A DNA stretch of 28,108 nucleotides from Savitreella phatthalungensis. Lineage: Eukaryota. Location of the stretch: assembly GCA_051599415.1 (NCBI GenBank), contig AP039699.1, forward strand, positions 496,001 through 524,108, written 5' to 3'. The position numbers and the translations under genes are program-made. Position 1 is the stretch's first letter. Each line of letters opens with the position of its first letter. Shown piece after piece: positions 6,701 through 28,108 of this stretch. The notes beneath the pieces were generated by a model. The model saw only the letters and a program-made list of their open reading frames with translations. It had not been told where the DNA came from and searched no databases.

Positions 6701-9700
6701 AGCTGCGTAGCCGAGGAGAAGCCCTGCGCGTGCAGCAAAACGCGAGCAATATCCGAAGAATCAGGACGGGACATTGCCATTGGCCGAAATAGCCGTCGGA
6801 GATTGTCGGGCAACCGGGATCGACCAGCATAGTCCGGATTTGTTGTGATGAATATTGCGGTCGTCGCAGAGAGCGGTACGGGTCTTGCAAGCAATTCAAT
6901 TCTTTCGCTGCCCTGCGATAGTCCTTGCTGTATGGTCCGAATCTGCTGCGAGACGGCTGACAGGATCGCAGGCTCTAACCGATTGAACTCGTCAAAACAA
7001 GCCCATGCACCAATCTGGCACGCGCCCGTAAAAATACGACCGATTGCGTCGTAGTCGAAGCTGTCGTCGCAGCAGAAGACGACGACAAATGTGCCAAGTT
7101 GCAAACCTAAGCTCTTCACCGTCTCCGTCTTGCCCGTGCCTGCAGGTCCGAAGGGTGCACCGCCCAAACGATGGTTGAGCGCCTGGGTCATGTTCAAATA
7201 GAAGGCATCGGTGAGTGGCGTCTGAACCAGGCGCTCGACTGGGCCAAGGTATTCCCACGCATAGGCGATTTCGACGTCTGCCAATCGAACGTGGACGGCC
7301 CTGCTCTCTTCATTGTGATAGTGTCGCAAGGTGAAGAGCCACTGATCGCGATCGGCCTTCACTCGATTGAGACTGGTCTCCTGATGTACAACCGTTGTTA
7401 GCAGGCCTTCGAAAGTCATACGCTGCAAGGCCGAAAGGTTGTCCGTGAGGCGGTCAGACAGAGATGCGAGCAATCTCTTGAGATGCTTGTCAACGTCATC
7501 GAATGAGTTCGTTTCAAGGGCTTTCTGCATGCGCTCTGTCCAGTAGCACTGGTGCGCCAGTATGACGAGCTGGCCAGGCAGAACACTGTCAAGAACATCG
7601 TCCCCTTTCCGTAGCTGCGCAATGAGGCTGGCGGTATGATGCTGCATCGCTGCGCGAGTGGCTTGCTCGAGGAGCGGCAGCCACTGAGCAGCTCTGAGCC
7701 CTTGGACAATGACATCGCAATCCAGCTCGAGGCGCTCGCCGAGTTGGCCCTGTACCGCAGTGACTGCACCGGCTTGGATTTCAATGGACACAATGCCTGC
7801 AAAGAGTTTTGAGAGATGTCGGTCAACGCGCGCGAAATCTTGCGAGTTGCCGATGATTTCGAGCAGGTCGTCGTTTCCAAGGAAAAAGAAGCGAGGGCAA
7901 ACGCTCCTTTCGCGATCGAGATATTGTCCTAGTGAGTTTTTGACCTTGTCCAGCTGATCTTGTAAGCGAGCTAGCGTCTGCTCGACATCAGCGATATCGG
8001 CGACTGCGAGCGGTCTTGATGGGGCTGCTTTCTGACATAACGTAACAAAGGCGCCGTCTGCAGCCATGAAGCGCGATGCTTCTTTTGGCAAAAGATATCG
8101 GATGTCCGAGCTCGCAGCAAAAGTGCCGTCCAGATAAGTCCAGCTGCGTTGCACTCGACGCCAAGTTTCGAAGACACGCGTTAGCCTCGACAGACGTTCG
8201 GACCAAAATTCAGCTTGTTCGCGGAAGAGTGTGTAGTATGGGGAATGACGCATCGAAGCCAACGCGGCGAGATGCTCGCCAGCCTTGTTCACAACGTCAT
8301 CGATCCCAGATATGAGCTGACAACGTCCGCGATAGTCTACCGAGGCAAGCTCATAACCTTGCCAGAGATCTTCGATACCGCTCAAAAACAATTCATTTGA
8401 ATACTCGCCCCTTGCTTGCCGGAGTATCTGCTGCACCGCGCAATTGTTGCTGCGCAAGTCTAGAGCCCATATGGAGCCGAGAGTCAAGTCTTTCCGCGAC
8501 CTGAAACTTGCTCCCAAGAGCTGACCCCAATGTCTGTCATGGAAGACATCCGATAGCAAATCTTTCAGTATCGTCGTGGTAGGCAAAAGGTCATCGACTA
8601 CCTTGCCGTACCAGTACTCAAATGCATCGTATTGTCTGATTCGCACCGGCATTTCGTCCATGATTGCGCGGAGCTCCTTCAGCTTATCACGGACTTTCCC
8701 GGCACTGGCCGACGTCACTGACATCTGCCTGAGATCTTCCAGACGATCCCAGACAGGAAGGATGGACTGCCAAACGGAACGCAAATCCTGCATTTCTGTC
8801 GAGATTTCGGCCAGCCATTTATCTTCGCCAGTTGTCATCCCAAGCGCCTGGCGAGCGCGCTCGAGCTCAACATCTTGTTGACGAAGCGCAGTCGCCGACT
8901 TTTCATGCTCTGCGATAATGACCAGAGCACTTGGAGGGTCTATCTCACCCCGCAAGGGGCGGTGCTCCTCCCAGGCACGCACTGAACGCTCAACATTTGC
9001 TGAGAATGTATGGGTTTGAGCCATTATCGTGTCGCGCAATTTTTCGTACTGTCCTTGCAGCGCCCGATCCGAGCTGACATGAAGAGCATCTAGACTCGAA
9101 AGCTCCTCAGAGAGGTTGAAGAGCTCTAACTTCTCTCTTTGGCGGTTTCTAGCGAGCAACCTCTTGATCTGGACCAGAGTCTCGTGCAGCGAGTACCAAA
9201 TGGGCAAGTCACGCTTACAGGCTTGTATAGCTAAGATCATGGCGACCGGGGAAGCAGCATTGATGGCCAGACGCTCCATGTCGAGTCGCTGACGCCGAAT
9301 GGCAGACAACGCATCTGTCAGCCGCTCCTCGGCCAGTCCGTGCAGTCTCTCCGATATGTCGCGCTGGATCGCATCATAGCGTGACATCATTCGACTCTGA
9401 ACCTGCTCAAAGATGACGAGAAGCGGACCAAATTGCTTTGACCTGTCTGTGGAATCGATGTTTGCGCGATACTGGTGGACGTCGGTCAGCAAATCGAGCC
9501 ATTGCTGCATGTCTCCCGTGCCTAGGCTGGCTTCAATGTCTGTAAGTTGCACGTCCCAGACGCCTTGGCTCGCAATCCACCCAGTGAGATACTCTCGTAC
9601 AAGACTCGCTTGTTTTGTGATGGCCAAGGTGGTCTGCTCGAAGATTCTTCCGGCGAGTTCGTCTGTCAAATCTGAGAATGTGGCGTTCAGTCTAGCTTTT

Positions 9701-14348: not shown

Positions 14349-16400
14349 ATGTCTCCCATAGACTTCGACGACATCTTTACGAGTGATCGAGATGAATCAC
14401 TCTCAGTCCGAACGCTCGATCGCGGGGCCTGGGAAGTGACGCGGAAGCTTGAGCCATCTCTGCCGCGTGAACCTGGCTATGTTGTTGGCGAGCCAAAGCG
14501 GCTCAAGCGATGGCTCAGCATTGAACGCTTGATGGCTTACTGGATGGAGCCAAAGCACGGACGAGGCCAGCTCGACGTCAATCGAGATTCGTTCATGCTG
14601 GGACTTGAGCGCGAGGATGCTCGATACGTGGTCGCGTTGCCATTATCAGGAACATCGGACGACTGCAACGCATACGTGCGAGCGGACAATGCCCAAGTTG
14701 TACTGCACGGACGAAATGAGGGCTCGTCAGCTGGGCAAATCCGGCTGGTCGTTACAGTGTCAAGCGATCTCCAAAATGCGATTGACTCCGCTTTCCAGCA
14801 TGCAAAGTCTCATTTCACTATTGGGACTTCCTCATCGAATGCGTACTGGAATGATGGTTTGTATTGGTGCAGCTGGAACGCATTCTATGACAAAGTCACC
14901 GAGGATGACATCTTGCATGCCCTCAAAAGTATAGCAGATCTTGGAATTCAGCTCGATGGTGCCATCATTGATGACGGATGGCAAGATGTCGATGATCAGC
15001 GACGATTGCGGAGCTTCCGGCCAAATCAGAAATTTCCGCACGGGCTGAAATGGCTAGTCGAGCAGATCAAGAGCCGTCATCCGAGCATCCAACACGTTGG
15101 CGTTTGGCACGCATTGATGGGTTATTGGAATGGCATTGCTCCAGACTCGGCCATCGCGCGCGCTTACAAGACGACATCTTGTCCTAACGACATCTGGTTA
15201 TGTACAGAAGGGGTCGACCAGCCCAGGGCATTGTTGTGCGTCGATGATGTTGACATTCACAGATTTTATGACGATTTCTATCGCTTCCTCGCCTCTCAGG
15301 ACATCTCCACAACTAAGGCCGATGCGCAGGCAGCGATCGATCAATTTGACAAAACATCCCCCCACCATCGCAGGTTGTGGCGGCCGTATCAAGATGCACT
15401 CGAGGCTGCCAGTGCGAAATACATGGACTCTCGCGTGATTTACTGCATGTCTCACGTCAACAATGCATTCTTCCACAGTCTTCTAGGTCCTGGGCGATTC
15501 AATCGTGCGCCCGTGCTCTTGCGTAACTCTGATGATTTCTTCCCGGACAGACCAGACTCACACAGCTGGCATATTCACGTCAATGTAATGAATAACCTCT
15601 ACACCACGAGGTTGTATTGTGTACCAGACTGGGACATGTTCGAGACGGGACATGAGCACGGCGCTCTGCATGCTGCCGGCAGAGCCATCTCTGGCGGCCC
15701 CGTCCTGATAACGGACGGCATCGGCAAGACGAATTTGAAGCTCATAGAGAAACTCACCAGCAAGCACCCAATGACGGGAAACCTCAAGGTTTTACGCTTC
15801 CAAAGTGGAGCCTGGCCACTACGACCTTTCCAGGGCTTTGGGGAAGCGCAACTGACTCACATTGTCAATGAGCGTGCGCATATCTTCACAGATGTGATTT
15901 TCAACCTCCATGAAACTGCCTTGTTGCAACATTTTAGCAGTACGGATCTCGGACTCGACGGAGATTACGCTTTTTGGCAAGAAAGCTCTGGCGATGTGCG
16001 ACTCGATGCGATCTCAGACAACAAATTGTTCTCTCTTGATCTAAAGCCGCGCGAATTCGATCGGATCGTCGCCGCCCCACTTCGACAGCTGTCTCACTGG
16101 CAGGTTGCGACATTCGGCCTGCTTGACAAATATGCCGGTGGCGCGGCTGTGGCAGTTATAGGTTCGACCGAGGCGTTGAGCATTGAGCTTGACTATTTCG
16201 GCCTGCTCGGCCTTCTGATCGCCGGGCAAAGAGATGTTTCCGTGGACATCAGCATAAAAGGACGCCGACTGCCCAAGGGCGCTGTGAAGTCTCGTGATCT
16301 TGCGTTCGGCGTGCTGCTGGAAATAGACGTGCCAGGCGCATGGGCAGTCCTTGGGCTTGACGGACGCCCTCCATATGAGATTCTGGTTAGACTCTCCTAG
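14349..16400 (+). CDS. GH36 raffinose synthase/Sip1-family alpha-galactosidase
   Basis: Family motifs WCSWNAFY, IIDDGWQ, VGVWHALMGYWNGI, KADAQ (nucleophile Asp), IYCMS, RNSDDFFP (acid/base Asp), PDWDMF and RAISGGPVLITD. Confidence 0.93.
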   Translation: MSPIDFDDIFTSDRDESLSVRTLDRGAWEVTRKLEPSLPREPGYVVGEPKRLKRWLSIERLMAYWMEPKHGRGQLDVNRDSFMLGLEREDARYVVALPLSGTSDDCNAYVRADNAQVVLHGRNEGSSAGQIRLVVTVSSDLQNAIDSAFQHAKSHFTIGTSSSNAYWNDGLYWCSWNAFYDKVTEDDILHALKSIADLGIQLDGAIIDDGWQDVDDQRRLRSFRPNQKFPHGLKWLVEQIKSRHPSIQHVGVWHALMGYWNGIAPDSAIARAYKTTSCPNDIWLCTEGVDQPRALLCVDDVDIHRFYDDFYRFLASQDISTTKADAQAAIDQFDKTSPHHRRLWRPYQDALEAASAKYMDSRVIYCMSHVNNAFFHSLLGPGRFNRAPVLLRNSDDFFPDRPDSHSWHIHVNVMNNLYTTRLYCVPDWDMFETGHEHGALHAAGRAISGGPVLITDGIGKTNLKLIEKLTSKHPMTGNLKVLRFQSGAWPLRPFQGFGEAQLTHIVNERAHIFTDVIFNLHETALLQHFSSTDLGLDGDYAFWQESSGDVRLDAISDNKLFSLDLKPREFDRIVAAPLRQLSHWQVATFGLLDKYAGGAAVAVIGSTEALSIELDYFGLLGLLIAGQRDVSVDISIKGRRLPKGAVKSRDLAFGVLLEIDVPGAWAVLGLDGRPPYEILVRLS

Positions 16401-18265: not shown

Positions 18266-20917
18266 ATGAGTCGCACGTTGATACGCTACGTGGTACCTTT
18301 GCAACAGAAGGATGAAGGCCACAGGATGGGTGTCAACTCGATTGTCATCGACCCCAACAATGACGGGACCCTCTATTCTGCCGGTCGCGATGGTGTCATC
18401 TGCGCGTGGGATCTCGGAGGTCATCAGCATCGTCTCAAACGCGTGATCCAGGTGAGTACAAACTGGGTTAACCAAATTGCGCTTTCACATGACCGGCAGT
18501 CCGTGTATTCTTGCTCAAACGACACTCTTGTAAAGGTCTGGCGTCCCAATGCATGGCAGAACGAGCAAGCCGAGCAAATCGGCATGCACAGAGATTATGT
18601 CAAGTGCGTTCAAGCGCCTGAATACACGGACGAGTGGATTGCTACTGCTGGCCTTGATAAGGACGTTGTGCTTTGGGACACGACCGGCAAAGGCGAAAGA
18701 CTGCGTATCAACGACAGCTCTGTGACTGGCGGTATGAAGCAGTCTGTCTACAGCTTGGCGACAGCCCCCAATCTCATCGTCAGCGGAGGAATTGAGAAGG
18801 TTGTCCGCGTCTGGGACATAAGATCCGGACAACGCGTGACAAAGTTCATTGGTCACACTGACAATGTTCGCGCCATTCTCGGCTCACAAGATGGCAAGAC
18901 TTTCGTTACTGCCTCGAGCGACTCGACCATCAAGATTTGGGATCTAGCCACTGGCAGATGTGCCCACACACTCACGATGCACACAGATCCGGTATGGTGT
19001 CTCGCTAGCGAGCATCCCAGGCTTGCTGTATTTCATTCCGGTGATCGATCTGGCATTGTCGTGAAGGCCGACCTCCGCTCTGGTCATAACGACGGTGAGT
19101 ATGTAGCCGTATGCCGCGATCGGGCTGGAGTGAACTCGATCGCTCTACACGACGGCAAACTCTTTACAACAACCTCGGCTTCTGATATTTCTCGCTGGCA
19201 AGACCAAAAGTTCACCGAGGACGACCCCTTCGCCGACGATCATGGTGAAGTTGATCTTCCTAGCAGGCTTATTACCCGTCCGATTGCGCCTTCCGATCGA
19301 CGCGTGTCCGCTTATTCCACCACATCGATTGCATCTGTTGAAGACGATGCGCAGACGGATGCTTCGGCTGACTCGCTCAAGCCGCTCTGCACAGAGCCCG
19401 AGGCAGTCATCCGGGGTCTCGCGGGTCTGACTGCGCATGTCATGCTTCCTGACCGCTCACAGGTCCTCACTAGTGACACGCATGGTCATGTGAAACTCTG
19501 GGATATCATCCGCTGCATTTCAACACGCGATTTCGGGAAAGCTGACCTAGACGACACCTCCGCTGTCCTGCAGACCGCTTTAGCAATTGGTGGATGGTGT
19601 AGCGTTAACACTCGCGTCGGTGCTCTGACAGTAGAATTGGATCCTCGCAATGTCCTCGACGGAGAGACCTACTTCGATCAAGTGATGGCAAATCAAGGGC
19701 TTGACGTTGACACTGCAAATCAGAGGTTCAACATTGGCAAATGGATTCTCTACGGCCTCTTCAAGCGACTGGTGAATCATGAGCGCGAACTCGATATGGT
19801 AGCGCTGCAGAAGCGCAAAGACCGGAGACCAGGAAAGCTGGATCTGTCTCAAGTCGGACACAACAACGCGCCTGATGCACTGCAGACGCCTCGCGCAGGT
19901 GTATCGGCTTTTGCTAGCAAGAATCCTTACAGTACACCCGGAGCCGCCATTGGGCTGGCGACACCGATGCCGACGTACAATCCAAAGACGCCGACAAGTG
20001 CGACACGTTTGTCTGGAGGGCCGGACTATTTTAGCGGGCAACACACGCCCGGAAGTAGCGACACGGCTGCAGCAGAGGCCAACTCCGCCCCGGCAGTGAC
20101 TCCAGGTGGTTCCGCAGGTTTTATGAAGAACATGAAGTGGCTGCGGGGCGGCACAAAGAAGGGAGAGGCAAAACCGAACAAAGGTGGCGCGCCCAGCTCT
20201 GCTGCCTCTGACACAGCTCCTGTAGCCTCGCAATCAAACATCACGACCTCTGCAGGCTCATTCACAAATGGTCTTGCCGGAAGCCCTACAGTCAAGACCT
20301 GGGCGGAGCTCGTGCAGAGACGTCGGAAGGATTGGCTCGAGAACGACGACGAGGGGAAATCGGGCTCGTGGATCGCTCCACAGGATTTGATGCCAAGTTT
20401 GGATTTGCCAGCTAGTATTATGATTTCCCTGGCAGATTTCCACCCAGGCCAAGGCGAAGCACAGGACATCTACCGCGGCGCCATCGGCAACTTGGTCACA
20501 GACTATGACGCAGTGACGCAAAAGCTGCCGGCGTGGCTCGCGCAGATCCTGCTGCTCAATGAACCACCGCCGCAGATGCTCAACACGGAGCAGAACAAGC
20601 ATTACTTCTCATTTGCGCCTCACGCGGATACGTCCCTCCCAGACCCATTCAACGGCTCCGCAGGAATCATGCGTTTGGGTGCTGCGCGATCCTTACGGAT
20701 CCGTAAGGCACTGTCGTACATATCACAACGCCTGGACGACGATCTTGTACAGCGCGAGCGAGCTGGACAGGACGCGCTCGACGAGACGTGGCTCGAGATC
20801 ATCTGCGGAGGACGGCCCGTCGATCCCGACTGGACTCTGCTCATGACGCGAAGGCATTTGTGGAAGCAAGGAGGAGATATGCGGCTCGAATATAGATTGA
20901 AGCGAGAGGCTCGCTAA
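18266..20917 (+). CDS. WDR48/UAF1 (Bun107/Duf1-like) WD40 deubiquitinase activator
   Basis: N-terminal GHRMGVNS...LYSAGRDGVICAWD, multiple WD repeats (HRDYVKC, GHTDNVRAIL, MHTDPVWCL), a FNIGKWIL motif, and a C-terminal SUMO-like domain (RLGAARSLRIRKALSYI...LEIIC...HLWKQGGDMRLEYR). Confidence 0.92.
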   Translation: MSRTLIRYVVPLQQKDEGHRMGVNSIVIDPNNDGTLYSAGRDGVICAWDLGGHQHRLKRVIQVSTNWVNQIALSHDRQSVYSCSNDTLVKVWRPNAWQNEQAEQIGMHRDYVKCVQAPEYTDEWIATAGLDKDVVLWDTTGKGERLRINDSSVTGGMKQSVYSLATAPNLIVSGGIEKVVRVWDIRSGQRVTKFIGHTDNVRAILGSQDGKTFVTASSDSTIKIWDLATGRCAHTLTMHTDPVWCLASEHPRLAVFHSGDRSGIVVKADLRSGHNDGEYVAVCRDRAGVNSIALHDGKLFTTTSASDISRWQDQKFTEDDPFADDHGEVDLPSRLITRPIAPSDRRVSAYSTTSIASVEDDAQTDASADSLKPLCTEPEAVIRGLAGLTAHVMLPDRSQVLTSDTHGHVKLWDIIRCISTRDFGKADLDDTSAVLQTALAIGGWCSVNTRVGALTVELDPRNVLDGETYFDQVMANQGLDVDTANQRFNIGKWILYGLFKRLVNHERELDMVALQKRKDRRPGKLDLSQVGHNNAPDALQTPRAGVSAFASKNPYSTPGAAIGLATPMPTYNPKTPTSATRLSGGPDYFSGQHTPGSSDTAAAEANSAPAVTPGGSAGFMKNMKWLRGGTKKGEAKPNKGGAPSSAASDTAPVASQSNITTSAGSFTNGLAGSPTVKTWAELVQRRRKDWLENDDEGKSGSWIAPQDLMPSLDLPASIMISLADFHPGQGEAQDIYRGAIGNLVTDYDAVTQKLPAWLAQILLLNEPPPQMLNTEQNKHYFSFAPHADTSLPDPFNGSAGIMRLGAARSLRIRKALSYISQRLDDDLVQRERAGQDALDETWLEIICGGRPVDPDWTLLMTRRHLWKQGGDMRLEYRLKREAR

Positions 20918-22341
20918 AGGACACAGAGCAGGCTTAAAAAAAAGAGCAGCATCTCAAAGCGAGGTGCCACACGGGAGGACCAATTCGATGCGGGCAGAGA
21001 ATTTCCGCCGTCGCAAGACGTATCGCCGAGCATGTCAACGCCCATGTAAATATCCGAGATTCGTTGACTTGTAGATGTGTTCGATAGCGTCATCTTGCGC
21101 ACGCGCGGTGCCACATGGTCTTGGATTGCTTGCGCGATGATCGAAGCTTGCGGTTCCGCTCCAGCGTCTCGTTTCGTTAGAGTTGAGTTTGAAAGCGCAT
21201 GATTCAAGCCAAAAAATGCATCGATATCGTCACGAGACATGCGAATGCCGCCGAACGTGGAATATTCGGGTGCGTAAAGCGGCACAGAGAGACGCTTCAG
21301 CAGCGTGTCATTGCGCACGCCACTGTAAAATTGGAGCACATTCTGTGCATCGCTCCTAGGCGTCTGCGACGCGCAGTCGAGACATCCCATACCTATGCAG
21401 TGCGAGCACGGGGCTTTGTCGGATGATGACAGACCTATCCTTGCAGCCTGTCGAGCAGCTTGGTCAAGCATGTCCGCAGCAGCGGTCGATTGCTGAAGCG
21501 AGAAAGTCACTTGCGGCAGTGGGGCTGTAGGCACCAGGAAACCATCTGAGTTGATTTCATAGGCGGTACCCGCAAAAGAAGAGAGCGCTCGGGAAGCCGT
21601 GTAGAGTATCGCGGCTCTGGACCACGCCGTTGCCCAGTCAGTCGTGTTGGAAATTGCAGGATTGATTGGTGTTTTAGTCACTCGCGTGTAAGTAGTCCCT
21701 AGTCTGAGAGAAACAACCTTCGCAGCTTCATTGTCGTACACAGGAGGCTCTCCAAAGGTCACAACGCTGACTGGCCGGTTCAAGCTCGCAGCCAAGACAC
21801 TTGCAACGCCCCCACCAGCACCGTAGCCGACGAAAGTCAGTCCATAATCGGACGATGAAAGCCTGTCAGCAAGAGCAGCTGAAGCCCGGACCGCCGCGAG
21901 AAGCGTGCTATTACCAATCATCCCATGGATGTTCAACGATTCGGCTGAGACGGCTTGCTCTTTGCCATCTCGAAGAACAGAAGACATAGCATCTGATGAA
22001 GGAAATCCAGCAAATGCGACGATTTGTTCTCGTTTCAAAGAATCCAACACGACGGCGCCGCCTTCGAATGAGGCAGCGATGCTGAGTCCCCCCAGCGATT
22101 TGCATGCTGAAGCCCTTAAACCATTTACGCCTGCTGCAATGTGGGCAAAACGCACGAGCCTGGCGTCTGTACTTCTTAAAGATGGTGTTCCGTTACCGTC
22201 CAATGCCGCTTGCGCCTGCGGAGCAGCGTCACGCCGGACAATCGACGGAGATACTTCGAGAGACGTCGCAGCGAGAACATGGCAACCGATCACCAGCAAG
22301 AGCATCGCGACATTGACAAAGCGGCCAGCGTTGCTTTTCAT
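20914..22341 (-). CDS. Secreted, possibly GPI-anchored lipase class-3-fold protein with degenerate catalytic motif
   Basis: Hydrophobic signal peptide (MLLLVIGCHVLA). Lipase_3-like landmarks QIVAFAG, LTFVGYGAGGGVASVLA, VVTFGEPPV and YTRVT. Cys cluster CSHCIGMGCLDC and hydrophobic C-terminus (MLLFFLSLLCVL). Confidence 0.7.
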   Translation of the reverse strand: MKSNAGRFVNVAMLLLVIGCHVLAATSLEVSPSIVRRDAAPQAQAALDGNGTPSLRSTDARLVRFAHIAAGVNGLRASACKSLGGLSIAASFEGGAVVLDSLKREQIVAFAGFPSSDAMSSVLRDGKEQAVSAESLNIHGMIGNSTLLAAVRASAALADRLSSSDYGLTFVGYGAGGGVASVLAASLNRPVSVVTFGEPPVYDNEAAKVVSLRLGTTYTRVTKTPINPAISNTTDWATAWSRAAILYTASRALSSFAGTAYEINSDGFLVPTAPLPQVTFSLQQSTAAADMLDQAARQAARIGLSSSDKAPCSHCIGMGCLDCASQTPRSDAQNVLQFYSGVRNDTLLKRLSVPLYAPEYSTFGGIRMSRDDIDAFFGLNHALSNSTLTKRDAGAEPQASIIAQAIQDHVAPRVRKMTLSNTSTSQRISDIYMGVDMLGDTSCDGGNSLPASNWSSRVAPRFEMLLFFLSLLCVL

Positions 22342-22347
22342 ACAGAA

Positions 22348-23052
22348 CTAGACGCTCATGCCTTCGATCTGCAGCGTCAGACGTAGATCTCGAGAGTTAC
22401 TACCCACAACGGCGAACCGAGCGCGGTTGAGACGAATGACAGCCAACTCTTCTTCTGCATAACATGGCGCCAACAGCCGGTATGAGCACCTCTCGAGGGG
22501 CTGTGCAATAGCAGAGAGGCAGGCTGAAACGAGCAGGGATCCCTGCACGACCAGATCTGCGTAACCCTCTACTTCGACAGCATATTTTCTTTCTGTGTGT
22601 ATCTTGTGCTGGTTGCTGGTGATGCGAGAATAATCAAGAATATCCTGCGACGAAAATATGACCGTGCGCAATGTCTCGCCCTTATGAATGGGACGGGGCA
22701 CTGTCGACCGTTTCTCCTGGAGGTAGATCAAATTACGTTCTTCCACTACGCACAGACGACCTTCTTGGTGAAGCGATCGTTTGACACGTGCGAACTCCCC
22801 ATCAAGCGTGTAAGTTTCCTGACAAGACACCTCGAGACCATCATCAAGCGTTCTGTGCCACTGGAGGGAGCCCGAGTGCCATAGCCGATGTCGCCACAAT
22901 TCTTCTGCAGGCGCTTGGAGCCCGTGATATCCGTCCTTCTGCAGAGGGACGTTGGTATGATTGCATACGAGAAATTCGTGCGATGCCCGGGTTTGAAGTA
23001 TTCGCGCGAGCACCTCTAGCCTAGAGACTTGCGGTGTCTCACGCGGCGGAAG
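22348..23052 (-). CDS. HTD2: HTD2-like mitochondrial hydroxyacyl-thioester dehydratase (double hot-dog/MaoC); no in-frame ATG start
   Basis: Motifs LQKDGY...RHRLWHSGSL, VEERNLIY, hydratase motif YSRITSNQHKIH and YAVEVEGYADLVVQG. The frame is open from the codon immediately after the COQ8 TGA; the only Met is the third-last residue. Confidence 0.8.
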   Translation of the reverse strand, partial: LPPRETPQVSRLEVLARILQTRASHEFLVCNHTNVPLQKDGYHGLQAPAEELWRHRLWHSGSLQWHRTLDDGLEVSCQETYTLDGEFARVKRSLHQEGRLCVVEERNLIYLQEKRSTVPRPIHKGETLRTVIFSSQDILDYSRITSNQHKIHTERKYAVEVEGYADLVVQGSLLVSACLSAIAQPLERCSYRLLAPCYAEEELAVIRLNRARFAVVGSNSRDLRLTLQIEGMSV

Positions 23053-24876
23053 TCACACATAACCGGCACGTGCCATGACGTCCTCGAAAATGCGTCTGCA
23101 CTCAATCCGACTGCGAAGCTTTGCACATAGTAGAAAGTGGCCGCTCAATCGACGATGCAAGCTGTAAGTCTCTTCCGGCGGAGGAGCAAGCCTTTGACGG
23201 AGCATCGTTGGGATGTACTTTTTCACGCGCTCGGTCACAGTCTGGCCCTCGAAATCGTAGACAGCATCTCGTGAGAGCTGGAACGAAAAGGGTTCTGCAA
23301 GAGTGAGAATTGAGGACAAGTGCGCCTCAATCATTTCCTCTGATTCGCCACCGGTGAGATATCCCAGCTCTTGGCTGAGTTGAACTAGCGTCGCACGATC
23401 GCCTCGCGCTGCGGCAACCAGCAAACGACAATACCGGTCAATGAAGTCGCGGTCGAACGCGCGTGACGCTCCAAAGTCAAGCAGCTCGATTCGGCCGGTC
23501 TTCTGATTGTAGAGGAAGTTCGTCCAGTTCGGATCAGTCTGCATGAAGTTGAACTCGGCAAGCTCACGCAGGCAGAGAGTCATCAACGCCGAACCAAGAT
23601 GATCACGCGTCTTTTGCGGTAGATCAAGCACCTTCGCTATGCCTTTGCCGTGAAGGAACTCAGTGGTCAAGACCTGCTTACCAGACAATTCGTCGATCAC
23701 CTCCGGCACGAGAAAATCAGTCTGATCCGTGCCAACAAGCTCGCGAAAGCGTCGCGTATTCTCAGCCTCGCGCTCGTAGTCACATTCCCAAGCGAGCTCA
23801 GTCCGAGCGTTTGCGATTGTCTTATCGAGGAACAGGCCTCTTGGAAGCAGCTTCGTGGCTTTCAGTAAGATGCCAAGGTTTTTAAGGTCCGAAGAAATCG
23901 ATTCTGCCACTCCGGGATATTGCACCTTGACGGCAACTTCACGCTTGTCGTGCAGACAAGCCTTGTGTACCTGTCCAATAGATGCAGCAGCAATAGGAAT
24001 CTCATCGAACGTGGCAAACTTGTCTCGCCAGGCTGCACCAAATTCGCGTGACATGACGGCGTCTAATTGCCAACCAGGCATGTAGTCGGCAGAATCCTGC
24101 ACACGTCGCATCACCTCTTTCACTGGCTCGGGCAGGCTGTCTTCCTGGAAAGAAATCATTTGGCCAAGCTTGAGGGCGGCTCCCCGCATGCGCGAAAGCT
24201 TTCGAACGAGGAGATCGACGTTGCGTGGTGACAGCACGCTAGAACCATTGCCGCCGAGCAGCCGATCGCTCAAAGAATTGAATGCCAGGGATGATCCGAG
24301 TGTCGTGTAGTGGTACAAGCGTGACAATCGTGAGGATGGCACTGTTGAGGCAGATAACGTGGATGTTAGCTCAAAAGCTGACTGCGGGATTTCGGCCGTC
24401 GGTTCTGCTGATGCATCGGGCTGGTCTGGCACGGAGACTCGGGACGGTTGATTCATTGGCCCGGGTTGTTGGTTAGATCGTAGCTCATCATGAGAAGAAC
24501 TCTCACCTGATCCATGTTGAACGAAGCCGCTCTGACGAAGGGATGAATCCCGCGCTCTTCGCAGAACAAAGACATCGTCGTTGCGCTGATCTGTCTGAAG
24601 GGGTTGCCGCTGTGGCCGCACCACTTCCTCTCTTGAACTCTTGACTATATCTTTTCGCTTCCTAAGTGCATTTGATGCAGCCTGTTCTTTCCTCAACACG
24701 TAAAGGTCATCTTCGGGCAAGTCTGCCGTGCCTTGACGACTGTGACCGACCGTGCGCCTAATGGACGAGCTTGTCCACCATTGCTCGTTGATACGAGAAC
24801 GTAGCAAAGCATTTTTCTTAAGGACGTTGGCGACAACACTCGCGATGGCCGCCACATCGGAGGCCTTCTGACTCAT
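23053..24876 (-). CDS. COQ8: Atypical ABC1/UbiB kinase Coq8 (ubiquinone biosynthesis)
   Basis: KLSRMRGAALKLGQMISFQ (KxGQ), AAASIGQVH, VAVKVQYPGV, MQTDPNWTNF, LLDFGA and PPPEETYSLHRRLSG, with a basic, presequence-like N-terminus. Confidence 0.96.
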   Translation of the reverse strand: MSQKASDVAAIASVVANVLKKNALLRSRINEQWWTSSSIRRTVGHSRQGTADLPEDDLYVLRKEQAASNALRKRKDIVKSSREEVVRPQRQPLQTDQRNDDVFVLRRARDSSLRQSGFVQHGSGESSSHDELRSNQQPGPMNQPSRVSVPDQPDASAEPTAEIPQSAFELTSTLSASTVPSSRLSRLYHYTTLGSSLAFNSLSDRLLGGNGSSVLSPRNVDLLVRKLSRMRGAALKLGQMISFQEDSLPEPVKEVMRRVQDSADYMPGWQLDAVMSREFGAAWRDKFATFDEIPIAAASIGQVHKACLHDKREVAVKVQYPGVAESISSDLKNLGILLKATKLLPRGLFLDKTIANARTELAWECDYEREAENTRRFRELVGTDQTDFLVPEVIDELSGKQVLTTEFLHGKGIAKVLDLPQKTRDHLGSALMTLCLRELAEFNFMQTDPNWTNFLYNQKTGRIELLDFGASRAFDRDFIDRYCRLLVAAARGDRATLVQLSQELGYLTGGESEEMIEAHLSSILTLAEPFSFQLSRDAVYDFEGQTVTERVKKYIPTMLRQRLAPPPEETYSLHRRLSGHFLLCAKLRSRIECRRIFEDVMARAGYV

Positions 24877-25064
24877 GAGTCTAGGTCGGGTCGAAGATGA
24901 TATCTGCTTTTTGTACTCGATGAAGTCATCTATCTGATTTGGATGTCAGCGCCGATATCGCTATAGTGATCAATTTCAGGCACGCAGGAACCGTACACAT
25001 CATTAGCTACAGTGCATATTCGAGTGCTTTTACAGCTTGCGCAAGAGTCATCCTGGTACGAAGC

Positions 25065-25907
25065 ATGGACAGGGCAACAAAACGCGTACGTTTTCACAGC
25101 GCCAATGAAGATCCAGCTCGCCTGACGCCATCTCAGGTACAAGCTGGGCGATCAAATATCTTCGGCCAGCTGCAAGACGAAGCGGAGCTCTCAGAAGATG
25201 ATATCGATGGGGACAATGGAGATGGAGCCGAAGACGAAGACGAGAACACGGATCGGGAGCTGAACGATGAGCAGGATATCGAGGCTGAAGATGTCTCCAG
25301 CATAGATGGGATCGAGACAGACCAGCTTGTTACGGGCGTAGATCGTGACGTGTCTGCAGATCGAAACGATGGCGATGACCCTGTGCGCCGAAGAGGACGA
25401 GACTCTGAAGCAGAATCAGCGGCCTTTGGGCTCGCCCTGGATAAGATTCTCGGGCGAGATTTACCGAAGTCGGCGAAGAAAGATCCTGTCCTTGCACGGT
25501 CGCTAGCTTCCCGACAGGTCGATGCCGAGCGAGAAGACGCCAAGCTCGAGCGCAAGGCGCGCGCACAGATGGCGGCCGAGAAAAAGATCAGACTGGATCG
25601 CAACCACGATAACCTTGAGCGGTTTTACAGCTCGAACACGATTGATAGCGATGACGATGCACGGGCACTCGAGCGCGAAAGAAATCTCCGCAAACTCGCG
25701 CAGCGTGGCGTCATCCGGCTATTCAATGCGATCAAGCAGGCGCAGACGGATATGAACAGACAGCATTCCGAGCAGATCTCTGCGGCTCGCCAGCGAAAAC
25801 TTCAGGCTGACGCAGTGCACAGCCAAGCAGAGTCGAAGGATGGAGGAGAGGCTGTTAACGACGCCAACAAGTTGTTGCTCGACATGATCGTTGGTGGCGG
25901 CCGGTAG
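25065..25907 (+). CDS. RRP15: Ribosomal RNA-processing protein Rrp15
   Basis: Acidic N-terminal region, then FGLALDKIL...DPVLARS and the Rrp15 signature ERERNLRKLAQRGVIRLFNAIKQAQ. First ATG at 25065; the ORF track start at 24939 is a TTG. Confidence 0.9.
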   Translation: MDRATKRVRFHSANEDPARLTPSQVQAGRSNIFGQLQDEAELSEDDIDGDNGDGAEDEDENTDRELNDEQDIEAEDVSSIDGIETDQLVTGVDRDVSADRNDGDDPVRRRGRDSEAESAAFGLALDKILGRDLPKSAKKDPVLARSLASRQVDAEREDAKLERKARAQMAAEKKIRLDRNHDNLERFYSSNTIDSDDDARALERERNLRKLAQRGVIRLFNAIKQAQTDMNRQHSEQISAARQRKLQADAVHSQAESKDGGEAVNDANKLLLDMIVGGGR

Positions 25908-26234
25908 AGTCAGCAGATGAATGAATGTACATTGAGCTTTCTGTACGCAGACCAGCGCTAGCAAGGGTCTTGGCATGCGACAATGGCGGAGATCAGGGAT
26001 GGCAAGACATTGCGGCACATCAGGCGCCAGTGTTGTCTACAGTCAAAGGAGTGAGATTGCAGGCAACAGGATGAGGCAAGTGCCATGCAGGTATTGTTCG
26101 TGACAGCGTTTGACAGATGTCATTCCAGGCAGGACAAAACAAGTGAAAATGAAGGCTGAAATATATGAGTTGTAATCAGCACAGCACAGTAGTACGGCAC
26201 AGCAACACAGCAGCATAGCACAGTCGCACAGCAC

Positions 26235-26374
26235 AGCAGCAGCAACATGCCCACCATCACCAGCAGGAGCAGCAGCAGGAGCAGCAGCAACATGCCCACC
26301 ATCACCAGCAGGAGCAGCAGCAGGAGCAGCAGCAACATGCCCACCATCACCAGCAGGAGCAGCAGCAGGAGCAG
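26235..26374. repeat. 45-bp tandem repeat, 3 copies
   Basis: Unit agcagcagcaacatgcccaccatcaccagcaggagcagcagcagg, with the ATG recurring at 26247, 26292 and 26337. Confidence 0.95.
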
Positions 26375-27136
26375 GAGCAGGGGTGGCAGTAGCATCAGTA
26401 GTAGCGGCAGTAGTAGCAGCAGTAGGAACAGCAGCGTAGTCGCAGCATTAGAATGAGTGAAGGTGATGAGAGAAGCAGTAAGTATGGAAGCAATAGCAGT
26501 AGCAGTTGTCCCAGTCAATAGAACACAGACTAGATGGTAGAATGAGGCATGCAAAAAGCACAGACAGGCACAGTCACAATGTAGTTAACAGATTACAGTG
26601 CATGACAGTGGCAAGTACATGCGACGGTGCACAAGACAGTCATGAGAAGCAAGTGAGAGTGAATTGAAGTCAGTTGTGGAGGAAAGGGCACAGCACAGCG
26701 CCAGCAATGGATTGGACAAGCAACAGTGGAGGAAACAGTGCATGCCATGTGACAATGCAGTCAATTGCAGTCAATTGATGTAGCATAACAGGCGCCAGTG
26801 CCAATTACAGACAGAGGAAAGAGAATGCAGGCAACAGGGTAGGGCCAGGGCCAAGCAGATGGTGTTTATGACAAGCTGAGACAGAGACAGTGGCAGGGTC
26901 AGGTGACAAATGACAGTGACAAGTGACAGTGCAGGATTGACACATCAAGTGAGAGTGCAGTGTTTAACAGATGACAGCATTTGACAGATGGGAGTGCAGT
27001 GATGAAACAGGGTACAGTCCAGGCAACAGTGGGTGACAGAAACAGAAAACAGGAGTCAACAGATGAACAGCAATTGGCAGATCAAGGGTTTGACAAATGC
27101 CAGGCCACAGAGCAGGGCAATGAGGCAAGTAGTAGC

Positions 27137-27560
27137 GCAGGTAATGGTATTTGAGAGATGATGACACAAGTGACAGTGCAGATAACACCGGGTGACAGAT
27201 GATGGTGCAGGCAACAGCACATGGCAGACAACCGTGCAAATAACAGGATTTGAAGGAGACCAGGCAGGAAACAACATTTGACAAAGACAGGGACAGGGCA
27301 GGTGACAGCATGTGAGGGATACAGGGTGTGTAATGGCAATTGAGAAATGGCAGTGCAGGTGTTGGGATTGATGAGTGATTTTGACAGTTGACAGCATTTG
27401 GCAGGTGATGGCATTTGCGAGGCGGCAGGGCAGATAACAGTATTGGACAAGTGGCAGTTCAGGTAACAGCATTTGACAGGCGACATGCAGGTAACAGCAT
27501 GTGACAGGTGACATGCAGATAACATCATTTGGCATTTGGCAGGTGACGGTGCAGTTGCAG
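27137..27560. repeat. Degenerate ~28-29-bp subtelomeric minisatellite
   Basis: Approximate consensus GCAGRTAACAGCATTTGACAGRTGACA(G)T. Unit starts at about 27178, 27207, 27236, 27264, 27298 and 27430, 27459, 27487, 27515. Confidence 0.75.
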
Positions 27561-27875
27561 ATGGAACAGATGGCAGGATTTTTAAGAGTAGGAATGTGGA
27601 GAGCAAATGGCATTGGATGTTTTAGGTAAACAGGAGGAAGAGTGTCAAATAGATGAGGGTTTGAGAGCAGGAGTACAGCAGAGAGAGAGGAGCAGTGAAG
27701 GGACGACAAGATGATGATGATGTTGAAGACCAGCAGGGGCATATGCGTGCAGACAAGTGTAGTGTAGCAAGGCAGCAGGCATGAGCAAAGAAACAAGGTC
27801 AGCGAGCAAGCAAGCAAGCAAAGCAGAGCAAGGGTTGGGGCATTGGTTAGTTTGACGGCGGTTAGTTTTTGTGGA

Positions 27876-28020
27876 TCAGGGTCAGGGTGAGGGTCAGGGT
27901 CAGGGTTAGGGTTAGGGTTAGGGTGAGGGTTAGGGTTAGGGTTAGGGTTAGGGTTAGGGTTAGGGTTAGGGTTAGGGTTAGGGTTAGGGTTAGGGTTAGG
28001 GTTAGGGTTAGGGTTAGGGT
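27876..28020 (+). repeat. Telomeric repeat (TTAGGG)n with proximal TCAGGG/TGAGGG variants
   Basis: 24 hexamers: 4 TCAGGG, 2 TGAGGG and 18 TTAGGG. The G-rich strand is on +, running toward the sequence end. Confidence 0.97.
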
Positions 28021-28108
28021 AGGTGCTGTTCTCGCAAAGGCAGAAAGTAGTCTTAACCTTAGCAATACGTAACTGAACTAGTAAGTAGATAAAACAAAAC
28101 AGTACATG
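28021..28108 (+). other. Oxford Nanopore native barcode NB06 plus ligation adapter (technical artefact)
   Basis: AGGTGCTG flank, TTCTCGCAAAGGCAGAAAGTAGTC (barcode 06 as recalled), TTAACCTT flank, then AGCAATACGTAACTGAAC (ONT adapter) and noisy bases. Confidence 0.93.

Follow-up and report, generated by a model that had tools for sequence, protein, structure and literature searches.

Possible UGA readthrough from COQ8 into a start-less HTD2-type reading frame in Savitreella phatthalungensis

On the minus strand of a 28,108-nt window of the compact genome of the yeast-like fungus Savitreella phatthalungensis (contig AP039699.1, positions 496,001 to 524,108; the window is this whole stretch), a reading frame for an HTD2-type dehydratase stands directly behind the UGA stop codon of COQ8, in the same frame and without a start codon of its own. 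The locus thus raises the question of how an HTD2 with such a beginning could be translated, and the answer considered best here is readthrough of the COQ8 stop.

The gene pair and its coding capacity

ORFs were called from stop to stop with the standard code, and the following features define the gene pair.

23056..24876, minus strand: CDS of the COQ8 / ABC1 atypical kinase, 607 codons from ATG 24876, Pfam PF03109 ABC1
23051..23055, minus strand: COQ8 stop UGA (23055-23053) and the next two bases CU, from the sequence
22351..23052, minus strand: HTD2-type double-hotdog dehydratase ORF, 234 codons, with no in-frame ATG before codon 232
22348..22350, minus strand: HTD2 stop codon TAG, from the sequence and the ORF list

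The upstream ORF matched PF03109 (ABC1) at E 4.7e-75 in a Pfam search, and over 71-77% of the query its product was 67-70% identical to the proteins of Taphrina deformans and Protomyces lactucae-debilis; its N-terminus and its C-terminal end, ...AGY[VLM], agreed with those of Taphrina, Protomyces and further relatives. Both the ABC1 domain and orthology to fungal Coq8 were therefore found. At the junction the minus strand reads ...GTG TGA, followed by CTT CCG CCG CGT GAG ACA, and the COQ8 frame stays open past the TGA for 234 codons (23052..22351) up to the TAG at 22350-22348, with residue 232 of 234 as the sole Met. This ATG-less arrangement had been described in an earlier note made from the sequence alone, and it was confirmed, as was the naming of the two genes as COQ8 and HTD2.

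For the downstream ORF, phmmer matched 925 library proteins at E<=1e-3 (57 at <=1e-10, 3 at <=1e-30), indicating a real coding region and no chance open frame. Similarity was significant to proteins named or classed as HTD2: the top relative, P0001 (E 9e-49), bears Pfam PF27832, named Htd2, and the yeast cluster P0018 (E 2.5e-15) includes five NCBI entries under the name hydroxyacyl-thioester dehydratase type 2, mitochondrial. A Pfam scan of the same ORF gave no family at E<=0.01 and one irrelevant match (0.13) at E<=10; PF27832 is apparently newer than the Pfam copy used. The AlphaFold model (pLDDT 95, pTM 0.91) showed the double hot-dog (R-hydratase/dehydratase) fold, with the itaconyl-CoA hydratase PaIch as the top Foldseek match (E 4e-19, TM 0.78-0.81) and plant ECH2, MaoC-like dehydratases and M. 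tuberculosis HtdX among the further matches.

Eight columns (D40, G41, R56, E104, N147, H149, H152 and E162) were invariant over 82 aligned sequences including the query, and the family-invariant residues of the DGY, R..W and N.H..H motifs were all kept. In the columns conserved at 80% or more, the query agreed at 22 of 28 and the relatives at 25-27; one of the six missed columns is the absent Met, and the others are conservative or clade-typical. Mean identity to nine outgroup relatives was 0.343 for the query versus 0.374 for P0001, the nearest relative, which agreed at 25 of the 28 conserved columns. By sequence and model, the downstream ORF is an intact HTD2-type dehydratase, with predicted activity and a predicted mitochondrial location.

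An ORF that lacks a start codon could also be a relic, left when a recent deletion took the spacer and the HTD2 start, and either unexpressed and as yet undecayed or with its function covered by another enzyme. The slightly greater divergence of the query, in both identity and conserved columns, would fit this reading, as would the HTD2 genes of relatives, which appear to be ATG-initiated. What speaks against it is that 234 codons have persisted with no stop or frameshift, that every family-invariant residue is retained and the model reaches pLDDT 95, and that the deletion would need one endpoint precisely at the COQ8 stop and the other at the first conserved residue of HTD2, with the frame kept. 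The loss of HTD2 abolishes respiration in yeast, which also counts against a relic, and this origin is considered distinctly unlikely.

Accuracy of the junction

A further ATG in the junction bears on the question of a sequencing fault.

23058..23060, minus strand: out-of-frame (+1) ATG heading a 14-codon ORF (MCDFRRVRHRKSLG, then a stop) that overlaps the COQ8 stop, from the sequence and the ORF list

From run X2, which comes from the same sample as the likely source, a 4220-nt Logan contig (word depth 158) matched 22300-23500 without a single differing letter or gap. A 486-nt contig from run X3, a phyllosphere metagenome of another study (depth 3.2), covers 22845-23330 and so includes the TGA, ATG 23060 and ATG 22966; it has 0 gaps and 1 other letter, 23236 C>A, which by frame reading is a synonymous change (GTG>GTT) in COQ8. 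The match from run X7 spans just 23070-23332, short of the junction, and run X4 gave no match. The COQ8-HTD2 junction is thus no assembly fault, being the same in contigs from two studies.

The earlier note had offered a 1-nt assembly indel between ATG 23060 and HTD2 as an alternative, and this was contradicted, since an indel joining the two is absent from both the X2 and the X3 contig. In its wider form, a sequence error would mean that a lost or inserted base conceals an HTD2 that begins with ATG, headed by ATG 23060 or by ATG 22966 with an extra C, or that the TGA is a miscalled sense codon. ATG 23060 does sit 8 nt ahead of the HTD2 ORF, and ATG(22966)-C-AAT-CAT resembles the predicted start of P0001, MNH... 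Besides the agreement of the depth-158 contig and of the metagenome contig, the residues ahead of 22966 (HEFLVC) can be aligned to HFLFW, a motif of the family, which shows the HTD2 frame passing through 22966. A sequence error is largely refuted already and is regarded as extremely improbable.

Other decoding routes were rejected as well. A -1 frameshift from ATG 23060 into HTD2 finds no slippery heptamer, a +1 shift at GUG-UGA-C enters the 14-codon frame and not HTD2, and termination followed by reinitiation at ATG 23060 yields a 14-residue peptide, again not HTD2. An altered genetic code was ruled out: the genes of the window end in TGA, TAA or TAG, and the 3904-codon dynein ORF has no internal stop, so the standard code applies.

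Coding signal directly after the stop

The beginning of the HTD2 ORF was compared with the N-termini of related proteins.

22996..23040, minus strand: N-terminal block ETPQVSRLEVLARIL (ORF residues 5-19), counterpart of the first block conserved among related HTD2 proteins

In alignment A1 this block aligned with the first conserved block of the closest HTD2 relatives. Against a profile of the 8 closest relatives it scored 8.0 bits, equalled by 10 of 5000 shuffles, while the other two frames scored -1.1 and -1.3; against a broader 20-sequence profile it scored 1.7 bits, equalled by 142 of 2000 shuffles, which is not significant. In the model, a beta bridge is formed at residues 4-5 and a helix at residues 9-19, with pLDDT 85 for residues 1-10 and 95 for residues 11-20. 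Both the HTD2-type sequence and the confidently modelled part of the structure set in 4-5 codons past the UGA, and between the UGA and the block there is neither an ATG nor a near-cognate codon in frame. An in-frame protein-coding signal directly after the stop is therefore given by the 8-relative profile and the model, and from these the stretch directly behind the COQ8 stop looks translated.

Stop context and predicted hairpin

The stop context at the end of COQ8 is UGA CUU, a leaky one. According to PMC4615788 the leakiest stop context is UGA-C, and PMC4207609 describes UGA-CU as the core readthrough motif in Ustilago maydis and HeLa cells and as sufficient for efficient readthrough in U. 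maydis. The leakiness emphasised in the earlier note is borne out to this extent, yet TGA-CT was found at 2 of the 11 ORF ends of the window, so the UGA-CU context alone is not rare and makes a weak argument. A predicted RNA structure follows it.

23003..23045, minus strand: predicted RNA stem-loop, beginning 7 nt after the UGA

The hairpin had a minimum free energy of -25.7 kcal/mol (z -2.8); it was as stable in 4 of 200 dinucleotide shuffles, and its stability was equalled by 39 of 3000 synonymous recodings. Among the 39 in-frame 63-nt windows tiling COQ8 and HTD2, the one with the hairpin was the most stable, with the runner-up at -19.7. Type II readthrough signals combine UGA-CGG/CUA with an extended stem-loop located some 8 nt downstream of the stop (PMC3542737). 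An Rfam search over 20000-25500 gave just a sub-threshold chance match and no SECIS, and a search for tRNA genes found none in the window.

Possible initiation within the HTD2 frame

HTD2 might instead be initiated independently, from an mRNA that begins inside the 3' end of COQ8, at a near-cognate start for which the first candidate is a GTG. The codons and the neighbouring gene that bear on this are as follows.

23011..23013, minus strand: first in-frame near-cognate GTG (ORF codon 14), the rival start, from the sequence; inside modelled helix 9-19 and the 3' arm of the hairpin
23074..23076, minus strand: final in-frame COQ8 ATG (MARAGYV-UGA), from the sequence; its role as a start is conjectural
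20914..22341, minus strand: class-3 lipase-like gene, ATG 6 nt past the HTD2 stop in the same frame, Pfam Lipase_3 E 6e-6

The lipase-like protein has an ATG and a signal-peptide-like start. The earlier note had argued from the lack of intergenic space for a promoter, and this argument proved weak: the lipase has an ordinary ATG only 6 nt past the HTD2 stop, so zero spacing at this locus does not by itself imply co-translation. The same gene favours a near-cognate start, showing that a gene here can be expressed without a spacer. The mtFAS gene HFA1 of yeast uses a non-AUG (AUU) start according to PMC4263661, most of the N-terminal block is missing in Protomyces-type HTD2, and, on visual inspection, the stretch encoded downstream of GTG 23013 looks basic and hydroxylated and has no acidic side chain within roughly its first ten residues.

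The product from GTG 23013 would have about 221 residues and lack the first half of the N-terminal block; the GTG lies within both the confidently modelled helix and the hairpin, and the conserved block that precedes it would escape translation and yet have stayed open and in frame. It is flanked by the out-of-frame ATGs 23060 and 22966 and by the in-frame ATG 23076, so that the transcript would have to start within a stretch of some 45 nt. On this reading, the UGA-CU context and the hairpin's position would be coincidences. Initiation at a near-cognate codon is considered unlikely. From the sequence, the COQ8 ATG at 23074..23076 could, on a short transcript, head a readthrough product without the body of COQ8.

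Splicing

All ORFs of the window are uninterrupted, including that of the 3904-codon dynein gene, which argues against splicing as the source of a fusion or of a start codon. Two forms of it were considered. The first is an in-frame 48-nt stretch, GTTATG(23063)...GCTAG(23016), which had been pointed out in the earlier note together with the +1-frame ATG (23060-23058) and the in-frame GTG (23013-23011); all three features are present. The second would use an alternative intron of far greater length, spliced from a phase-1 donor within COQ8, such as CAG|GTGAGA at 24506, to the acceptor AAG| at 23028; HTD2, beginning at its residue 9, would then follow the N-terminal 123 residues of COQ8.

Either join preserves the reading frame, three of the 8 GTRNGH sites listed (24506, 23681 and 23567) have a good consensus in phase 1, and a shared targeting exon would solve the problem of import. 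Set against this, GTTATG makes a weak donor site, each join would cost part of the conserved N-terminal block, and phase-compatible GT/AG pairs are expected by chance alone. Lengths of 48 nt and of about 1.5 kb are both atypical when compared with the mean intron of 78 nt given for Taphrina deformans in PMC3648899. Splicing is accordingly held to be very unlikely.

Readthrough as the preferred explanation

The best explanation, to which about an even chance is given, is that HTD2 is made as a Coq8-X-Htd2 fusion by programmed readthrough of the UGA; we infer both the readthrough and its rate. It is favoured by the continuous frame with a single UGA between the COQ8 and HTD2 ORFs. In this fungus of the Taphrina/Protomyces clade, HTD2 would have lost its own start and any spacer, so as to begin now at the first codon past the COQ8 UGA in the same frame. 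The majority of ribosomes would terminate at the UGA and give Coq8, and a minority, aided by the following CU and the hairpin 7 nt downstream, would decode it with a near-cognate tRNA (Trp, Cys or Arg) and continue, giving an 842-residue Coq8-X-Htd2 protein. This fusion would probably enter mitochondria by way of the Coq8 N-terminus and may supply HTD2 activity either as fused HTD2 or after release by cleavage.

More tentatively, with a probability put somewhat below even, an essential mtFAS enzyme of a free-living fungus would have programmed UGA readthrough of the COQ8 mRNA as its only source, being made as a bifunctional Coq8-Htd2 that borrows the Coq8 import signal, from a signal like that of viral type II readthrough (UGA-CU and a hairpin 7 nt downstream). 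Readthrough normally gives a small share of the product, and HTD2 is expected from what is known of mtFAS to be needed for respiration, so a small share would have to suffice, which counts against readthrough.

If readthrough is the route, a complete conserved enzyme would depend on it entirely, as happens with viral replicases; to our knowledge, known cellular readthrough adds short tails (peroxisomal signals, small extensions) to otherwise complete proteins. Genome compaction would then have turned two neighbouring genes into one recoded unit, a nuclear two-enzyme 'polyprotein', and UGA-CUU with its hairpin would offer a fungal readthrough signal that occurs naturally and is easy to assay. 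Dosage of the lipoate/acyl-ACP pathway would be tied to that of coenzyme Q synthesis; the coupling of the two pathways through the fusion, which the earlier note had proposed, is purely conjectural. Readthrough would also explain why annotation pipelines miss HTD2 in this lineage: in a collection of 15 billion proteins the HTD2 ORF protein was absent and the COQ8 protein of the same contig was present.

Relatives of the gene pair

In relatives of the Taphrina/Protomyces clade, COQ8 and HTD2 appear to lie on one contig; in Protomyces lactucae-debilis, HTD2 (ORY81366.1) and COQ8 seem to share a scaffold of 560,494 nt. The predicted HTD2 of most relatives has a Met start lying between a few and about 60 residues ahead of the conserved block. 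The start-less arrangement therefore cannot be called conserved. The earlier note had named a normally separated, ATG-initiated HTD2 in relatives as a finding that would speak against it; the ATG-initiated part is what the predicted proteins show. In the Protomyces-type relatives P0006 and P0281 the N-terminal block is shorter or missing, so a product initiated further in might still work.

With the HTD2 part as query, no fused COQ8-HTD2 protein of 463-1474 residues was found. A metagenome scan with alignment A2 gave 18 pattern matches and no relative, and one with the single HTD2 protein gave 25 loci at 25-38% identity, probably bacterial hydratases and of no use for the junction. No report of the COQ8 and HTD2 gene pair was found in the searchable literature, a coverage that leaves out subscription journals.

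Comparison with known systems

The closest cellular cases are the enzymes with programmed readthrough at UGA-CU(A) presented in PMC4207609, namely Tpi1, Pgk1, Art1 and Rpe1 of Ustilago maydis and human LDHB and MDH1. The proposed case shares with them a cellular gene, a UGA followed by CU, and an in-frame extension decoded by a minority of ribosomes that alters what the protein can do. It differs in that the extensions described there are short PTS1 targeting tails, whereas here a whole 234-residue enzyme follows with no other evident route of translation; moreover, the third base after the stop is U, and the stimulating base in the systems of PMC4207609 is A.

With type II viral readthrough (alphavirus nsP3/nsP4, tobravirus, coltivirus; PMC3542737), the locus shares UGA-C, a predicted stable stem-loop at the same spacing and, as proposed here, a whole downstream enzyme domain made only by readthrough. 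The viral cases are polyproteins, whereas this is a nuclear gene pair with a hairpin that is predicted only.

In yeast, adjacent ORFs parted by one stop codon (SORFs) have been screened for readthrough in work cited in PMC4615788. These also consist of two ORFs in one frame with a single stop between them; as far as that citation goes, they are mostly short or unconserved extensions, whereas both ORFs here are conserved enzymes of known families.

The human HsHTD2 ORF lies in the 3' UTR of the RPP14 mRNA and starts at an AUG of its own, with leaky scanning or reinitiation as the suggested mechanism (PMC4705651). If the proposed readthrough occurs, HTD2 would likewise come from the 3' part of another gene's mRNA with no gene of its own, making this the second lineage after the vertebrate RPP14/HTD2 in which HTD2 rides on another mRNA. 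Unlike the AUG-headed ORF described for RPP14, the ORF here has no in-frame ATG before codon 232 and is in frame with the upstream stop.

Yeast Hfa1, as reported in PMC4263661, is an mtFAS component that initiates at an upstream AUU on its own mRNA and thus also has a translated N-terminus without an AUG, whereas at the present locus an in-frame stop stands immediately upstream and no near-cognate codon lies ahead of the conserved block.

Sequence of the COQ8-HTD2 junction

The upstream minus-strand ORF encodes COQ8 in 607 codons, running from ATG 24876 to a last GTG that precedes the TGA stop at 23055-23053. Pfam ABC1 is matched at E 4.7e-75. The nearest named relatives are the Coq8-type proteins of Taphrina deformans, 67% identical over 77% of the query, and of Protomyces lactucae-debilis, 70% identical over 71%, which places the window in a fungus of this clade. 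Past the TGA the same frame stays open for 234 codons (23052-22351) and ends at TAG 22350-22348; the sole Met of this second ORF, HTD2, is residue 232. Three further features described in the earlier note were found as reported, namely GTG 23013, the 48-nt stretch GTTATG...GCTAG, and the following:

23060, minus strand: ATG of a 14-codon ORF in the +1 frame

A 4220-nt Logan contig from the likely source sample (word depth 158) was identical over 22300-23500, and a 486-nt phyllosphere metagenome contig from another study spanned 22845-23330 without a gap and with one change at 23236, which by the reading of the frame is a synonymous GTG>GTT in COQ8. The two contigs agree, and the junction sequence is genuine. 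This excludes the 1-nt assembly indel that had been suggested near ATG 23060 and that would have joined this codon to HTD2.

ATG 22966 was likewise rejected as a hidden HTD2 start. An extra C stands between it and AAT CAT, so that the stretch mimics the predicted start "MNH" of P0001, the HTD2 homologue of the nearest relative. The frame is continuous at this point, since the residues just before it, HEFLVC, correspond in the alignment to the family motif HFLFW, and the contigs also exclude the candidate. With both contigs supporting the junction and this alignment keeping the frame, a sequence error is scarcely conceivable. The element ATG-C-AAT-CAT (22963-22966) is shifted by one base from the frame at the very position where P0001 is predicted to begin, so the first conserved block of P0001 also has no called ATG; the predicted start of P0001 probably reflects truncation in the gene call, and P0001 may share the start-less arrangement.

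Identity and integrity of the HTD2 ORF

The second ORF had no family match in the local Pfam copy, while an exhaustive phmmer search returned 925 proteins at E<=1e-3, of which 57 reached <=1e-10 and 3 reached <=1e-30. The best match, P0001 (45% identity), carries PF27832, a family named "Htd2" in the Atlas output, and a budding-yeast cluster (E 2.5e-15) includes NCBI entries named "hydroxyacyl-thioester dehydratase type 2, mitochondrial". The AlphaFold model, built from an 82-sequence alignment, had pLDDT 95 and pTM 0.91; its top Foldseek match was the double-hotdog itaconyl-CoA hydratase PaIch (E 4e-19, TM 0.78-0.81), followed by plant ECH2, MaoC-like dehydratases and mycobacterial HtdX. At all eight columns invariant over the 82 sequences the query conforms. 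Because homology, fold matches and invariant columns concur, the original HTD2 assignment stands and the ORF looks functional.

A recent relic, in which HTD2 expression was lost very recently, is distinctly unlikely. The query has diverged a little further than P0001, both in mean identity to nine outgroups (0.343 vs 0.374) and in agreement at well-conserved columns (22/28 vs 25/28), but its misses there are the absent Met and conservative or clade-typical changes, and the ORF does not look like a pseudogene.

Start of HTD2 coding and context of the COQ8 stop

In the alignment of HTD2 relatives, the close ones share a first conserved block of the pattern x-E-[TV]-P-x4-[LI]-x2-L-x3-L, which aligns with ORF residues 5-19 (ETPQVSRLEVLARIL), that is, from the fifth codon past the stop. 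A profile of this block from the eight closest relatives, with the query left out, scored the query at 8.0 bits, a value reached by 10 of 5000 shuffles; the other two frames scored -1.1 and -1.3. With a broader 20-sequence profile including budding yeasts, the score was a non-significant 1.7 bits, which 142 of 2000 shuffles also attained. In the model, residues 4-5 form a beta bridge and residues 9-19 a helix; pLDDT is 85 over residues 1-10 and 95 over residues 11-20.

The in-frame codons between the UGA and the block (CUU CCG CCG CGU) include no near-cognate start, so translation of the block would require ribosomes to pass the UGA. Initiation on an internal transcript at the near-cognate GTG 23013 is doubtful.

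The best-supported reading, to which we give an even chance, is programmed UGA readthrough yielding a putative 842-residue Coq8-X-Htd2 protein; in a variant, a shorter mRNA would be translated from the final in-frame ATG of COQ8 (23076). The stop context is UGA-CU. According to Stiebler et al. (PMC4207609), UGA followed by CU is enough to drive readthrough efficiently in U. maydis and also functions in HeLa, and an A at the third position boosts it further, whereas here the third base is U. Of the window's 11 ORF ends, 2 are TGA-CT, which is a caveat on this signal. A predicted hairpin (-25.7 kcal/mol) begins 7 nt past the stop; its z was -2.8, with 4 of 200 dinucleotide shuffles as stable and 39 of 3000 synonymous recodings, which preserve the peptide, matching it. 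When both genes were tiled with 39 in-frame 63-nt windows, the window containing the hairpin was the most stable (runner-up -19.7 kcal/mol). Firth and Brierley (PMC3542737) describe type II viral readthrough as combining UGA-CGG/CUA with an extended stem-loop some 8 nt further on.

Such a mechanism would be of a known kind; the expression of a whole essential enzyme in this way from a nuclear gene would be new. Unusual expression of genes for mitochondrial fatty-acid synthesis is described elsewhere, as in the bicistronic human RPP14/HTD2 mRNA (PMC4705651) and the non-AUG start of HFA1 (PMC4263661). No report linking COQ8 and HTD2 was found in the literature searched.

The Protomyces Coq8 (P0158) end ...GYLPPMSS* can be set against ...GYV*LPPRETP at 23044-23064 of the window, with the three residues LPP matching past the GY[LV] end. 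This match may be coincidental, or it may point to an older Coq8 tail as the origin of the codons that immediately follow the stop.

Linkage and predicted starts in relatives

HTD2 and COQ8 homologues could be paired in six relatives by equal "longest contig" values.

Paired homologues and their longest contig
HTD2 P0001 and COQ8 P0152: 26722 nt
HTD2 P0271 and COQ8 P0153: 5829 nt
HTD2 P0005 and COQ8 P0157: 4790 nt
HTD2 P0008 and COQ8 P0156: 19442 nt
HTD2 P0009 and COQ8 P0159: 21783 nt
HTD2 P0006 and COQ8 P0158 (Protomyces): 560494 nt

From these equal values, rather than from DNA, the linkage seems old in the Taphrina/Protomyces clade. A protein search with the HTD2 part as query found no fused COQ8-HTD2 protein of 463-1474 residues.

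The earlier note had proposed ATG-initiated HTD2 in relatives as a test. A Met does head most of their predicted HTD2 proteins, 1 to ~60 residues ahead of the conserved block. Between strains of a single 90%-identity cluster, however, the start shifts (MICRDS..., MYSTRRDVICRDS..., MLEEVP...), so the annotated starts are unreliable gene-caller choices. In the cluster of P0003 (P0271-P0277), HTD2 proteins more than 90% identical to one another differ between strains in their predicted N-terminus: their lengths are 264, 257 and 272 residues, and the same position is M, V or extended by 8 residues.

Gene neighbourhood and genetic code

The window is very compact, as seen in the following features:

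16397-16400, convergent gene pair: CTAG, stop codons overlapping by 4 bases
20914-20917, convergent gene pair: CTAA, stop codons overlapping by 4 bases
22341, minus strand: ATG of a class-3 lipase-like gene, six bases past the HTD2 stop and in the same frame, with a signal-peptide-like N-terminus

Owing to the four-base overlaps, the 3' UTR of each convergent gene must extend into the coding sequence of its neighbour. The claim that HTD2 has no room for a promoter applies equally to the normally started lipase gene, and is weakened accordingly. Either the lipase gene has its promoter and 5' UTR within HTD2, or transcripts are common to COQ8, HTD2 and the lipase gene. Together the three form a head-to-tail series in one frame, nearly free of spacers, on the minus strand (20914-24876): COQ8-TGA-HTD2-TAG-(TTC TGT)-ATG lipase. 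The lipase-like protein also has a hydrophobic C-terminus.

The genetic code is standard, since genes in the window end in TGA, TAA and TAG and the 3904-codon dynein ORF has no internal stop. This cytoplasmic dynein heavy chain (715-12429, minus strand) is one uninterrupted ORF, as are the remaining ORFs, so the genome seems intron-poor compared with Taphrina deformans, for which 2.1 exons per gene are given (PMC3648899). Splicing into HTD2 is therefore very unlikely: eight candidate donors are present, and phase-1 donors such as 24506 could join acceptor 23028 in frame, but that intron would be ~1.5 kb in a genome that looks intron-poor.

An ORF terminating in TGA-CT runs off the window end, with a sub-threshold acidic-repeat match to Trypan_PARP (38.5 bits vs a cutoff of 100); it coincides with strong GC skew (0.19-0.47) and AT skew (0.22-0.37) over the last 2 kb (26001-28108).
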